Virus record (IMG/VR): IMGVR_UViG_2617270974_000007
Span: 1 to 4,274 of that record
Origin: a virus
Taxonomy: Duplodnaviria > Heunggongvirae > Uroviricota > Caudoviricetes
DNA: 4,274 nucleotides
Direction: 5' to 3' (one strand)
Each line of letters begins with the position of its first letter. The first letter of the stretch is position 1. The notes under the pieces were generated by a model. It had not been told where the DNA came from, did not search any database, and saw nothing but the letters and a program-made list of their open reading frames with translations. A program made the translations under genes and the position numbers. This document shows, piece after piece, positions 1 to 4,274 of the stretch.

Positions 1-1386
1 GGGGTCGATGGGTGACTCACTGACCGGGCTGATTTTGTTCGCCGCTTTGGCCTCCTCGAGGATGTAGCGATAATCCACCTCCGCACCATCGGTAACGGTC
101 AGAACGCCCATTTCCACCCATTTCTGAAAGCGTTCGGCTGTCCGTCGATCTTCATTTTTCTCGACGCTGTACACCGTGTCATACGGTACCCAGAAACGCG
201 GGGCCACACTGTAGTAATGCGTTTTACCGTCAATCTCGCGGGTATAAAGTCGCGCCATGCTGTTCATATCCAGTTTACGCGCCAGGTCAAAGGCCAGAAT
301 GCACGGCTGCCCCTCGAACTGCTCAAGGGTCAGTGATTTATCCTCGCAGCTCTGCCAGCTCACCAGGTTGAAATACGCCGAACGCGCCGACACCCAGATA
401 TTGAGGTGTTTTGTTTTAAAGACGTTTGCCAGACGGGCGTTATTTTTCGCACGCTGCTGCTGACTTAACAAAAATTCGCGATAAACCGACACGCCAATAT
501 TTGGATTGGCTTTTTCCAGCACCTGCGGGTCGGTCCAGTCGTCACCTTCATCAACGGTATAGATGATCCCGAACAGTTCATCGTTAGGCACCGAGCCATT
601 GAGCATCTCGATGACTTCCCGCCGCTTGTCGTAGCACGGCCCCTCAATGTTGTACCCGGCGGTGGTGATGGCCCACATCAGTGGCTGACGTCGCGCCCCC
701 ATCCCGGTAAGCATCGTGGTATAAAGCGCATCGGTGGCGTGCTCGTGATATTCATCCACCACGGCGCAGTGGGGTGATGAACCATCACCGGGGTTACCGA
801 TCAGCGGTTCAAACCGCGCGCCATCCTCCGGACGGTTCATGTTTGAGGCGTTAACCTCAATCCCGAACGCTTCCGTCAGCATGGGTGTGCGTTTACACAT
901 CAGTCGCGCCGGGCGAAAGACTTCCCACGCCTGTTTCTCTGTCGTGGCACCGGAATACACTTCCGCGCCAAACTCGTTATCACAGGCAAAACAATACAGG
1001 GCGACACCGGCAGAGATTGCCGATTTGCCGTTCTTACGGGGGATTTCGGTATACACCTCCCGGAAGCGGCGCAGCCGGGTACCTTTATTGACCCAGCCAA
1101 ACGCACAGCAGATCACAAAGAGCTGCCACGGCTCCAGCGTGATGGGCATCCGTTTGAATGCCCACTCACCCTTGGTATGCGGCAACAGCTGAATAAATTT
1201 GGCGGCCCGTTCAGCCAGGTCCTTGTCGAAGCGGTACCGAAACGACTTACTTTTTTCCGCCATCAGGTCATCAAGATGGCGCTGGCAGGCCTGAATCACA
1301 AACTGGCAGGCCACAATCTTTCCGCGCACGACATCCCGGGCATACTGATTGGCAGCATTTACGTTGGGGTAAGATTTCCGGCTCAT
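1..1386 (-). CDS. terL: Phage terminase large subunit, N-terminal 462 codons; the C-terminal end lies beyond the window start
   Basis: Minus-strand frame is open from ATG at 1386..1384 to base 1, with no stop, which is why it is not in the ORF track. Translation starts [41 protein letters not shown]. It contains a deviant Walker A motif EIPRKNGKS (about 1021..1047) and a Walker B-like hhhhDE motif [10 protein letters not shown], as in terminase ATPase domains. The ATG overlaps the upstream gene's stop as ATGA. Plus-strand ORFs in this span are antisense shadows. Confidence 0.9.
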
Positions 1387-1877
1387 GATTCGATGATTTT
1401 CAGAAACGGGTTAGTGGCTTTCTTCTGTCCCGCCAGGCCAATCAGACGCTGGCGGCTGCTGGGGTCGAGTCCGAGCATTGCCCCCGTGCTGCTCATCTCG
1501 GACTCCTGTTCTTTTTTGGCGGTCAGCTCAGGATTTTTGACCATACCGCCCATTGCACCGGTGATGGTGTTGCCCTGTCTGGCAATATTTTTCACGGCAC
1601 GTCGCCAGAACTCGTAGGCCACGCACCACCGCTCAAGCACCGCGAGGTCAGTCACGCACAGCAGGCCCTGACCGCAGAGTTCTTTAGTTGTCAGTTGCCA
1701 CATGATCGTAGCGAGAGGGAGATCTTCTTCAGCGAACCACTCCGGTGGCTCAACACCTTTGATGGGCGTAAAAACAGGTTCATCTTTATTCAGGGCTCGC
1801 TTGCCGGGGTTTCCGGCCAGCGCCTTGCGCGCCGTTGGCTTGGGGCGACGCCCGGAACGCCCCGCCGTTCCAGCCAT
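1383..1877 (-). CDS. terS: Phage terminase small subunit, P27 family
   Basis: Complete minus-strand ORF. Preferred start is ATG at 1877..1875, 8 nt after an AGGAG ribosome-binding site (1890..1886); the track's GTG at 1886 sits directly against that site. Product starts [34 protein letters not shown], with the GNPGKR motif I recognise from P27-type small terminases. Stop TGA at 1385..1383 overlaps the terL start. Confidence 0.85.
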
Positions 1878-1885
1878 ATGCGGCA

Positions 1886-1890
1886 CTCCT
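1886..1890 (-). promoter_or_regulatory. Shine-Dalgarno sequence AGGAG for terS
   Basis: Minus strand reads AGGAG-TGCCGCAT-ATG, giving an 8-nt spacer to the ATG at 1877. Confidence 0.5.
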
Positions 1891-2002
1891 GGTTAAATTT
1901 CATTTTTCGCGGGTATAAAAAAACGATGGGGCGGGCAGTCCGGAAGACGTCAGGTCACAGGGATTTGACCCGCCCCTCCCCTCTGGCAGTGGGAACTGGT
2001 TC
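1891..2002. other. HNH-terS intergenic region; candidate cos packaging site with a GC-rich inverted repeat
   Basis: Noncoding gap between the HNH stop (2005..2003) and the terS ribosome-binding site. It holds an 8-bp inverted repeat GGGGCGGG (1928..1935) / CCCGCCCC (1969..1976) around a roughly 33-bp core with small palindromes TCCGGA (1939..1944) and GACGTC (1946..1951). On the minus strand it is followed by ATCGTTTTTTTAT. In HK97-like phages cos lies between the HNH gene and the small terminase gene, so the placement here is by position only. Confidence 0.35.
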
Positions 2003-2353
2003 TTACTTCAGCCGTTCACGGGCCGTCTTCGCCTTATGACACGGCCAGCACAGGCTCTGCAGATTACTGTCGGCATCAGAGCCGCCATGCGCTTTAGGGA
2101 TGATGTGATCAACGGTTTTCGCTTCACGCACCACACCGGCACGCAGACATAACTGACATAAACCTTTGTCACGTTTCAGCACACGCGCGCGGATAACGTC
2201 CCACTTCGAACCGTAGCCGCGCTGATGACGGGATTGTCCAGGTTTGTATTGCTTCCAGCCTTCGCTTTTGTGGCTTTCGCAATAACCTGACGGGTCTGTG
2301 GTTATAGAGCGGCAGCCGCGAACACGGCAGGCCTTTGGGATTCGTGGTGGCAT
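2003..2353 (-). CDS. HNH homing-type endonuclease, packaging-associated
   Basis: Complete 116-aa minus-strand ORF. It has an N-terminal Cys-rich segment (CRVRGC...C..H), an HNH core DHIIPKAHGGSDADSNLQSLCWPCH and a second zinc-binding Cys pair. Its position immediately upstream of terS/terL is characteristic of cos-type packaging modules. Confidence 0.85.
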   Translation of the reverse strand: MPPRIPKACRVRGCRSITTDPSGYCESHKSEGWKQYKPGQSRHQRGYGSKWDVIRARVLKRDKGLCQLCLRAGVVREAKTVDHIIPKAHGGSDADSNLQSLCWPCHKAKTARERLK

Positions 2354-2563
2354 GGGTGTTCCAAAATAAATAAACGCTAGCGAATTCTAGTAGCTTGAAT
2401 TGAGTGTGATGGCCAGTACTGAACTTGAATCCGATTCGGTGTCAGCTTGGTTTTAGGCGATTACGCACAATTTGTTTTCCCTCATCAGACCAGGTTTTTA
2501 ACCCATCATTATATATATACCCATCACCAAACTACGGCTTCCAGTAGGTTACTGTGTTTAGCA

Positions 2564-2593
2564 TGAGTATTTTGTGGTATAAGAAAATACTCA
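2564..2593 (+). promoter_or_regulatory. Perfect 10-bp inverted repeat TGAGTATTTT-(10 bp)-AAAATACTCA upstream of the small plus-strand ORF; candidate operator or 5' UTR hairpin
   Basis: Arms at 2564..2573 and 2584..2593 are exact reverse complements. The spacer GTGGTATAAG contains a -10-like TATAAG (2578..2583), and a weak -35-like TGTTTA (2555..2560) lies 17 bp upstream. The repeat ends 19 nt before the ATG at 2613. The promoter assignment is by eye only. Confidence 0.35.
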
Positions 2594-2612
2594 ATTCTTG
2601 GGAGAAGAAAAC

Positions 2613-2894
2613 ATGCCAAAAATTCAATTTGATGCAAAAAGTGGTGAAATGAAGGTTGAGGAAGAAATTTCCAAGATCACCATTGATGATAAAGGCTTAG
2701 TTAAAGCTGAAGAGTCTGTAGTTAATGGAAATACCGTTAAGTACTTTGAGTATGAAAATGGTAGCCATATCACTATTACCCAAAAAAACGGATCCTCTGA
2801 GATTTCATCTCATAATATCCAGACAACAATAAGCGCTGACCCTGAAAAGCCTGGTTTTGTGACTATGACTTACAGAATGGGGTCAGGTAGCTAA
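2613..2894 (+). CDS. Hypothetical small protein (93 aa) in an AT-rich moron-like cassette; function unknown
   Basis: ORF with ATG at 2613, 8 nt after a GGAG ribosome-binding site (2601..2604); the track's TTG at 2598 overlaps that site and is unlikely. Product is MPKIQFDAKSGEMKVEEEISKITIDDKGLVKAEESVVNGNTVKYFEYENGSHITITQKNGSSEISSHNIQTTISADPEKPGFVTMTYRMGSGS. It is hydrophilic, mildly acidic, with no signal peptide or transmembrane segment and no motif I recognise. GC is about one third (20 of the first 60 nt), against clearly GC-rich neighbouring phage genes. It is on the opposite strand to the phage genes and is followed by a terminator. Confidence 0.6.
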   Translation: MPKIQFDAKSGEMKVEEEISKITIDDKGLVKAEESVVNGNTVKYFEYENGSHITITQKNGSSEISSHNIQTTISADPEKPGFVTMTYRMGSGS

Positions 2895-2921
2895 CTTTCA
2901 TTTCAACAAGAGCGGAAAATC

Positions 2922-2957
2922 AAAGCGGCTCATATTGAGCTGCTTTTCATTATTTTC
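2922..2957 (+). terminator. Rho-independent terminator, possibly bidirectional
   Basis: Stem GCGGCTC (2925..2931) pairs with GAGCTGC (2937..2943), with one G-U pair and a 5-nt loop ATATT, then TTTTCATTATTTT. It starts 30 nt after the ORF stop. On the minus strand the same hairpin is followed by TTTGATTTTCC, so it could also stop transcripts coming from the lysis side. Confidence 0.6.
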
Positions 2958-3164
2958 TGCATCCACACTTTCGCAATGGCCGCGATCATGCCCTTGAGAC
3001 CATGTGTCAGGGGTATCTCGTGAATCCCTCATAACTAACCGGAAGCTGACTGGCTATCAGCCTAGAGCACCGGTGCGCTTCTTCCCGTTAACCCTCACCA
3101 GTGCGCTCTCAGCTTTTTACCTGAAACTGGCTACCAGCAACTTTGAGTATTCGGGGCAGCGTCA

Positions 3165-3434
3165 TTACTGCTGCATTGACACTACTTGCTGCGGTCTTTC
3201 CGCTTTACAGCTTAATGGCCAGCTCCTCTCTGCCTCAATTTTACGAATATCAGCTTTATCACTATTACAGGCAGCCAGAGCCGACAACAGACTCACATTC
3301 AAATCCAAGCTTCCACCGTAGGTCAATGGATCAGGAATAACCGGTTGCGGGGTTTCAGCGGTCAGGTTCGCCGGTAGTGGTATCACCGGAACTGGCACGT
3401 AAACTGTCCGCGTACCGGCGCAACCGGTCAGCAG
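3165..3434 (-). pseudogene. Rz1-like outer-membrane spanin lipoprotein, N-terminally truncated by the IS insertion
   Basis: Minus-strand frame is open from the IS junction to TAA at 3167..3165. It reads LLTGCAGTRTVYVPVPVIPLPANLTAETPQPVIPDPLTYGGS..., i.e. a lipobox LTGC followed by a proline-rich stretch, the hallmark of Rz1-type o-spanins. No signal-peptide start is left on this side of the IS. The track shows only the GTG-initiated 77-aa part (3165..3398). Confidence 0.4.
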
Positions 3435-3435
3435 C
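3355..3435 (-). pseudogene. Possible C-terminal remnant of an Rz-like inner-membrane spanin, overlapping the Rz1-like frame
   Basis: A second minus-strand frame is open from the IS junction to TGA at 3357..3355, giving AADRLRRYADSLRASSGDTTTGEPDR. An open frame ending inside the start of an Rz1-like frame fits the overlapped Rz/Rz1 gene arrangement. A 26-aa fragment is weak evidence on its own. Confidence 0.25.
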
Positions 3436-3436
3436 G

Positions 3437-4274
<838 letters not shown>

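Follow-up and report, generated by a model that had tools for sequence, protein, structure and literature searches.

A probable single-gene moron cassette encoding an orphan, predicted all-beta protein between the lysis and packaging genes of an SfV-like Escherichia coli prophage

An AT-rich cassette carrying one small gene is found between the lysis and packaging genes of a temperate Escherichia coli prophage of the SfV/SfI/SfIV/ST64B type. It lies in positions 1 to 4,274 of IMG/VR record IMGVR_UViG_2617270974_000007, a stretch of 4,274 nucleotides that is referred to here as the window. The gene is an open reading frame (ORF) of 93 codons, designated ORF93, and is very probably a genuine, independently transcribed moron gene. 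The moron was defined from HK97 and the lambdoid phages (Juhala et al., 2000; Hendrix et al., 2000; restated in PMC2629481), and the cassette shares with such elements its status as extra DNA between genes that are adjacent in phage SfIV, a putative promoter and terminator of its own, a lower guanine-plus-cytosine (GC) content, and the fact that it is not needed for virions. It differs in having an atypical promoter, with only an extended -10 element and a G at the last position of the hexamer, and in that its expression from the prophage is inferred here. Taken as one composite proposal, namely a moron cassette at a cargo hotspot that encodes an orphan beta-protein, with that protein acting as a cytoplasmic binder of other proteins in the lysogen, the interpretation is favored with some caution.

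The composition of the cassette sets it apart from the phage genes on either side. GC content is 37.8% (0.378) over 2354-2962 and 0.369 within the ORF, versus 56% and 53% in the flanks (0.559 over 1-2353; 0.530 over 2963-3436), and a local GC trough also surrounds P0003, the ORF93 homologue carried by locus L009. An earlier note made from the sequence of the window had delimited an AT-rich block at 2354-2960, and the comparison of related prophages that it had proposed returns these borders almost to the base. In six of six relatives (L003 to L006, SfIV and vB_EcoM-689R6) homology to the window is lost exactly at 2353, the start codon of the HNH endonuclease gene. In the closest relative, L003 (UTAK-5), homology is regained at 2963, and comparison thus places the borders of the exchanged module between 2353 and 2354 and between 2962 and 2963. 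The segment occurs in two of 5426 complete E. coli genomes; the flanking HNH region occurs in 1173.

What lies between the lysC and HNH genes varies considerably from one prophage to another. SfIV has a bare gap of 291 bp, containing no gene, between Rz1 and HNH, and its published gene list passes from the lysis genes orf50-53 to the HNH gene orf54 (PMC3851460). SfIV does possess an AT-rich moron (39% GC) elsewhere, in the interval from Q to the lysis genes (PMC3851460). In other prophages the lysC-HNH site is occupied by at least six cargo genes that are unrelated to one another. These include a 131-aa plus-strand (antisense) ORF within a different AT-rich cassette of UTAK-5, a 186-aa phrog_30030 protein, a DUF2513/phrog_585 protein accompanied by a 64-aa protein (phrog_9518), another 64-aa protein (phrog_31491), and a 168-aa phrog_5789 protein. 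Because the content between the two genes varies among prophages and the SfIV site is empty, the comparison indicates that the lysC-HNH junction is a cargo hotspot. The other occupants share with the ORF93 cassette the site and the left junction at the HNH start and are mutually exclusive with it, and the UTAK-5 cassette is in addition both AT-rich and antisense; their sequences, however, are unrelated to ORF93 and most are encoded on the strand of the late operon. No other occupant has a PADLOC match and all are functionally uncharacterized, so the site gives no hint of function by association. Because homology ends at the HNH ATG, the sequence upstream of HNH, including its ribosome-binding site, comes from each cargo itself. 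That the junction is so sharp and recurs suggests either that recombination favors this point or that only the HNH coding sequence is under selection.

A further line of evidence comes from locus L008, an IMG/VR contig in which the ORF is 95% identical to that of the window and the non-coding flanks within the cassette are 85-88% identical, while the TerL, TerS and HNH genes are only 76-80% identical. Since the ORF and its flanks are more alike than the phage genes around them, the pattern suggests that the cassette has spread separately from, and more recently than, its surroundings. The cassette would have moved by recombination into a permissive hotspot of Enterobacteriaceae lambdoid prophages, between the last lysis gene and the HNH/terminase genes. 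The earlier note had called the region a horizontally acquired moron, and this view is borne out by a replaceable, variably present module, by a site that is empty in SfIV and filled with unrelated genes elsewhere, and by the identities in L008.

Evidence that the cassette encodes a protein comes chiefly from homologues. An ATG-initiated ORF of at least 93 aa appears in 32 of 2000 shuffles of the segment (1.6%), a length only modestly unusual in itself, and the homologues settle what ORF length alone cannot. Close variants, with 90-98% identity, are found in L008 and L012, and an exhaustive phmmer search of 1.84 billion representative proteins recovered P0003 (91 aa; 41-42% identity; E = 2e-19) as the only true relative at a greater distance. 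ORF93 and P0003 align from end to end with no internal gaps, and between them the proportion of changed synonymous sites (pS) is 0.88, effectively saturated, whereas that of non-synonymous sites (pN) is restrained at 0.37. Conservation in orthologous regions, the lack of which the earlier note would have counted against its reading, is present in both close and distant homologues. Most replacements among the close variants are conservative, and they concentrate in the first third of the protein; residues 33-88 hardly vary within the subfamily. The positions that vary among family members are 5, 6, 19, 21, 27 and 32, with position 27 (window 2691-2693) occupied by K, Q, E, A or T, and these N-terminal residues could form an edge that determines specificity.

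The earlier note had also described a single plus-strand ORF at 2613-2894, opposite to every phage gene of the window, and RefSeq holds the same gene as WP_033866617.1, a "hypothetical protein" annotated identically in two complete E. coli genomes. A TTG start at 2598 was considered and rejected, because 2613 agrees better with the spacing to the Shine-Dalgarno site, with RefSeq and with the conserved N-terminal MP. ORF93 is the only conserved ORF of the cassette. No conserved small ORF exists in the 259-bp leader, where the candidates start at TTG codons and are interrupted or altered in both L008 and L012. The leader contains a (TA)n run (cattatatatatac, window 2507-2520; about 605-618 in L012), a possible site of the 2 bp by which the leader of L012 is shorter; the reading frames of the spurious small ORFs upstream are also disrupted by this minor difference in length. 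That ORF93 is an accidental reading frame in AT-rich spacer DNA, with coincidental signals around it, is an extremely improbable alternative. It can draw on the 1.6% of shuffles that yield so long a frame and on the lack of a known function or family, but it must contend with the full-length distant homologue and its excess of synonymous change, with a conserved layout of start, Shine-Dalgarno site and terminator, with an ORF that is conserved more than its flanks, and with a confident structure prediction. The exact protein is moreover indexed in 527 sample blocks, and every context that was read places it between HNH and lysC/lysB in the same type of prophage. Taken together, the comparisons indicate that ORF93 is a real, selectively maintained gene.

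Signals for independent transcription and translation are arranged closely around ORF93. The inverted repeat, ribosome-binding site and terminator that the earlier note had assigned to the gene were all located, at 2564-2593, 2600-2604 and 2912-2960, respectively. Because late transcription runs the opposite way, ORF93, which is antisense to the Q-dependent late operon, would be readable only from a promoter of its own, for which TGnTATAAGAAAA is the candidate. Such a promoter, antisense to the late genes, would be the arrangement of prophage-expressed accessory genes. The TGnTATAAGAAAA block is invariant in four of four upstream regions, including that of the homologue with 41% identity, and stands 29-30 nt before the start codon each time; the upstream regions of the two subfamilies are otherwise diverged beyond recognition. 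It is provisionally regarded as an extended -10 promoter. A consensus scan of the plus strand found no promoter, having missed the TGnTATAAGAAAA block because it has no good -35 element and its hexamer ends in G. The sequence GTGnTATAAGAAAA is likewise invariant (window 2574-2587 and L009 7961-7974), its -10-like hexamer ending in G rather than in the near-universal T, and this block is either an unusual promoter or one recognized by something other than sigma-70. As judged from these signals, the balance tilts modestly toward expression of ORF93 in the lysogen.

Transcription would end at a strong hairpin behind the stop codon, which folds in silico at -23.7 kcal/mol (z = -5.9) and is flagged by the terminator scan on both the plus and minus strands. 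The terminator is probably bidirectional, and it would keep transcription of the cassette separate from that of the late operon. Equivalent hairpins follow the stop codon in L008 and L009 as well, those of the two subfamilies differing in sequence. In lytic growth Q-modified RNA polymerase would read through the terminator, as is established for lambdoid phages. In the lysogen the same hairpin may also halt minus-strand transcription that leaks, without antitermination, from the lysis genes toward HNH and the terminase genes.

The perfect palindrome over the -10 block would be a probable operator in the window lineage, and such a role for some regulator is plausible. In L008 one position is altered on both arms (G:C to A:T), so that symmetry is kept, and one outer position is mismatched. 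No second copy of the palindrome is present in 24.6 kb of prophage sequence, immunity region included. The idea of a repeated phage operator was dropped on account of this single copy, and the palindrome is not an obvious CI/Cro site.

The palindrome bears directly on a different account of ORF93, in which it silences the gene in the prophage and the protein is made upon infection or induction, serving anti-defense or the tuning of lysis or packaging. An operator-like palindrome overlapping a -10 element does imply repression under some condition, small soluble acidic proteins without a family are typical of anti-defense genes, and the gene always adjoins the lysis and packaging modules. This lytic role is nonetheless unlikely. 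The palindrome is not repeated near the immunity genes or elsewhere in the prophage, and the antisense location within the late operon would bring the gene into collision with late transcription during lytic growth. A net charge of only -4 does not make a DNA mimic, the types of holin, endolysin and terminase vary among backbones and so offer no consistent partner module, and the absence of the gene from nearly all relatives makes it dispensable for the phage.

A promoter-overlapping palindrome is also the usual layout of an autoregulated toxin-antitoxin operon, and single small prophage genes can be toxic. For these reasons ORF93 was considered as a toxic or abortive-infection effector, or as a member of a toxin-antitoxin pair, restrained through autoregulation at the palindrome or through a small partner that is antisense or adjacent to it. 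Such a role is very unlikely, as the cassette contains one conserved ORF rather than two adjacent, co-oriented small genes, and the terminator follows directly after the stop codon. The window contains no Rfam RNA, and ORF93 has no PADLOC or Pfam match to a toxin or antitoxin and no membrane-active segment. An acidic all-beta protein is, in addition, a poor candidate for a DNA-binding autoregulator.

The family to which ORF93 belongs is small and narrowly distributed. Among 15 billion proteins only two small clusters were found, both confined to the Enterobacteriaceae, with members from E. coli, Salmonella enterica, Citrobacter freundii and Enterobacter that are all named hypothetical. A word-indexed search of 5.8 billion proteins returned near-identical copies alone, and its profile version added just P0003. 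No match was found among INPHARED phages, whether by DNA comparison in near and distant modes or by tblastn, nor among plasmids, nor in two scans of the GTDB species representatives. IMG/VR holds no further loci of subfamily B, and subfamily-B DNA is absent from complete E. coli genomes.

Three phage backbones carry the gene at one and the same junction, antisense in each. The first combines a P27-type small terminase with holin_8/3_7. The second, that of L008, has a P27-type small terminase with holin_3_1, a different holin family, and an additional phrog_13198 gene that intervenes. The third, which carries P0003 in L009, is a different lambdoid phage with Terminase_3, a DUF2280 small terminase and Mu F-type head genes. 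There P0003 lies between the lysis and packaging genes as the sole gene antisense to all others, in the neighborhood of a metallopeptidase-like gene, a 63-aa gene and a KilA-N gene. The suggestion of the earlier note that the protein might be one component of a system finds no support among adjacent genes, none of which is conserved across the three backbones. Since neither a flanking gene nor an upstream small ORF is conserved with it, we infer that ORF93 either needs no partner or has partners whose genes lie elsewhere, in the host or another phage.

The predicted protein is hydrophilic (grand average of hydropathy -0.63), has a net charge of -4 and contains no cysteine or tryptophan. No membrane segment, signal peptide, lipobox or hydrophobic stretch was detected in ORF93, the maximum 19-residue hydropathy (KD19) being 0.17 (0.27 in P0003), and by these properties it is predicted to be a soluble cytoplasmic protein. 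Because it is soluble and cytoplasmic, envelope proteins of the Bor, Cor, Imm and Sie kinds are excluded; superinfection exclusion of the membrane type (Sie, Imm, Cor, HK97 gp15-like) depends on a transmembrane or lipoprotein anchor, which ORF93 does not have. The AlphaFold2 model consists of nine consecutive antiparallel strands, a beta meander with tight G/N turns, at a mean predicted local distance difference test score (pLDDT) of 86.3 and a predicted template modeling score (pTM) of 0.68. Several polar residues are invariant in the family (D25, K31, E33, E34, E46, E63, S65, H67, N68 and D76). These residues fit no recognized catalytic motif, and they could form a binding surface.

Searches for a relative of known function were uniformly negative, in agreement with the earlier note, which had recognized no motif in the 93-aa protein; neither profile nor sequence nor structure searches gave a characterized match. 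No profile in Pfam, PHROGs, NCBIfam or PADLOC matches ORF93 above threshold, no sequence-profile match exists in the PDB, and a Foldseek search against BFVD returned nothing informative (best E = 0.12). Within PADLOC-DB 2.0 the sole match was to Specificity_I (E = 0.018, 12 bits, 42 residues), which is not significant, and P0003 had no match. A Pfam Hexapep_UGP3_C match (E = 9e-4, below the cut-off) was rejected because it is not common to P0003. A resemblance to MORN-variant or YwqK-like repeats ("KYFEYENG...KNG") was set aside, as none of three family members matches Pfam MORN or MORN_2 at E values up to 10. Six other phmmer matches were also discarded, being long repeat proteins of unrelated families (fn3, Big_5, Flg_new, Lipoprotein_17) that share a generic beta-hairpin composition. 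A literature search returned no paper mentioning the RefSeq accession. The ORF93 family is thus an orphan, already listed in databases as hypothetical and without a relative of known function.

Perhaps the closest positional counterpart is the bor gene of phage lambda, studied by Barondess and Beckwith, which reportedly lies just past Rz/Rz1 in antisense orientation and encodes about 95-97 aa. ORF93 resembles bor in map position, after Rz/Rz1-type spanin genes and before the packaging genes, as well as in orientation, size and occurrence as a single-gene cassette. Lambda Bor, however, is an exported outer-membrane lipoprotein, whereas ORF93 has no signal peptide, lipobox or cysteine and does not match Pfam Lambda_Bor at E values up to 10. 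The relation is one of positional analogy and not of homology. The resemblance does raise a role in lysogenic conversion or virulence outside the cytoplasm, in the manner of Bor or of a secreted effector, and carriers of the gene include an avian pathogenic strain as well as human and Salmonella isolates. There is little probability in this role either. Besides the features of ORF93 that separate it from Bor, including the lack of any hydrophobic stretch, its acidic N-terminus is unlike type III secretion signals, and the carriers also span commensal and environmental Enterobacteriaceae.

A different model is offered by DicB of the Qin prophage and Kil-type proteins, which are short cytoplasmic prophage proteins that bind a host protein and can incidentally block superinfecting phages. 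ORF93 is likewise short and cytoplasmic, has no enzymatic motif and is a prophage accessory gene; it differs from these proteins in sequence, fold and genomic position, and the likeness is a working model, not a result. ORF93 seems too small and featureless for an enzyme, so it would act by binding another protein rather than by catalysis. A cytoplasmic protein binder expressed in the lysogen is the best guess as to its nature, one held with low confidence. As to the process served, a part in phage-phage conflict, as a soluble, DicB-like modulator of a host or incoming-phage protein, is tentatively put forward by analogy, although it falls short of even chances. Some quite different role is possible, if doubtful. 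A contribution to host physiology or fitness is unlikely, and modulation of the phage's own lysis or packaging somewhat more so. Also unlikely is the more specific and ambitious proposal that ORF93 is the first member of a new protein family, with a small beta-meander fold not seen before, that blocks superinfecting phages or host defense through specific protein binding. If that proposal were true, selection for this activity would be what has carried the cassette, from promoter to terminator, into unrelated lambdoid phages of E. coli, Salmonella, Citrobacter and Enterobacter.

Several observations weigh against the composite proposal as a whole. The candidate promoter has no -35 element and a G as the last base of its -10, and may therefore be weak, activator-dependent or misplaced. 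A perfect arm of at least 10 nt arises in five of 300 shuffles, making the palindrome only moderately unlikely by chance, and it is not conserved in L009. The ratio of non-synonymous to synonymous substitution rates (dN/dS) among the close variants is about 0.47, a value derived from only 14 substitutions, and the structure model was built from three sequences only. To our knowledge most classical exclusion proteins are membrane proteins, unlike ORF93.

The remaining genes of the window provide the setting of the cassette (Table 1), and every phage gene among them lies on the minus strand. A prophage of E. coli 300033 matches positions 1-3436 at 100% identity, and one of the avian pathogenic E. 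coli (APEC) strain E19025 matches them at 98.9%. In both genomes RefSeq annotates a Q-like antiterminator, two holins, a GH19 endolysin and lysC, followed by the hypothetical protein on the opposite strand and then by HNH, TerS, TerL, portal, HK97-type head genes and a contractile tail.

Table 1. Coordinates of the cassette, its signals, neighboring genes and comparable cargo. Positions refer to the window unless a locus is named.
Feature	Position	Strand	Details
Moron cassette, AT-rich replaceable module	2354-2962	+	about 610 bp, single gene; between HNH start codon and conserved region 3' of lysC
ORF93, sole gene of cassette	2613-2894	+	93 aa, 10.2 kDa, isoelectric point 5.1; predicted all-beta, soluble
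Perfect 10-bp inverted repeat, candidate operator astride -10	2564-2573 / 2584-2593	.	TGAGTATTTT N10 AAAATACTCA; 10/10 complementary, 10-nt spacer
Candidate core promoter, extended -10	2574-2587	+	TGgTATAAG within block GTGGTATAAGAAAA; TG 2575-2576, hexamer 2578-2583
Shine-Dalgarno site	2600-2604	+	GGGAG, 8 nt upstream of ATG; equivalents AGGAG (L008), AAGGGA (L009)
Intrinsic terminator hairpin	2912-2960	.	inner stem 2922-2946, outer arms 2912-2920 / 2952-2960; T-rich tails on both strands
TerL fragment	1-1386	-	domains TerL_ATPase and TerL_nuclease
TerS, P27-type small terminase	1383-1886	-	Pfam Terminase_4
HNH endonuclease gene (packaging accessory), left neighbor of cassette	2003-2353	-	Pfam HNH, E = 2.8e-16; start codon is the fixed left junction
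LysC remnant ORF (Rz1-type spanin)	3165-3398	-	Pfam LysC, E = 4.1e-13
3' part of lysC and 3' end of lysB (lysB from about 3353), right neighbor	3165-3436	-	IS-truncated
ISEc31 (IS3-like) copy, partial in window, outside cassette	3437-4274	-	rve and HTH_21 domains
Cargo at lysC-HNH site, L003 (UTAK-5)	L003 1955-2532	+	different AT-rich cassette with 131-aa ORF
Cargo at lysC-HNH site, L004	L004 2373-2933		
Cargo at lysC-HNH site, L005	L005 2089-2759		
Cargo at lysC-HNH site, L006	L006 2007-2201		
Cargo at lysC-HNH site, L016	L016 3012-3518		

On the right, a copy of the insertion sequence (IS) ISEc31 interrupts the lysis genes; it shares 99.9% identity with annotated copies found in many E. coli genomes. 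It is inserted in the overlap of the lysB and lysC spanin genes. Homology to intact relatives stops at 3436, where these continue with the 5' part of lysC and with lysB, both genes being intact in L001, L002 and L012. The "lysis remnants" of which the earlier note spoke are explained by this insertion, since ISEc31, from 3437 onward, splits lysB and lysC. The copy of the prophage in the window probably cannot complete lysis and may be defective. In some assemblies with an identical ORF93, TerL is called as 498 aa instead of 577 (L017 2041-3537; L023 2041-3537), with a gap before TerS, which suggests damage to a packaging gene in some carrier prophages. On the left, TerS and HNH are separated by a gap of 116 bp (1887-2002). 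The linear genome records of SfI, SfIV, SfV and ST64B, with HNH as their final gene, have their ends at the matching place; the gap therefore probably holds the cos site, and the cassette would then lie about 350-960 bp away.

Morons are where temperate phages keep genes that alter their hosts, including genes for exclusion, defense, anti-defense and virulence. As an element of an already known kind the cassette is unsurprising to a specialist, and its value is that of a tidy experimental candidate. As a test case it is clean and minimal, with a single gene, well-delimited borders, the empty site as a natural comparator, a confidently predicted fold, and carriers among cultivable E. coli. Should ORF93 prove to have no phenotype, it would be one more orphan prophage gene. 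Should it have one, it would introduce a new small-protein family, possibly with a new fold, to the biology of phage-host conflict, and it would make the lysC-HNH junction of SfV-like prophages a hotspot whose cargo deserves to be mined.

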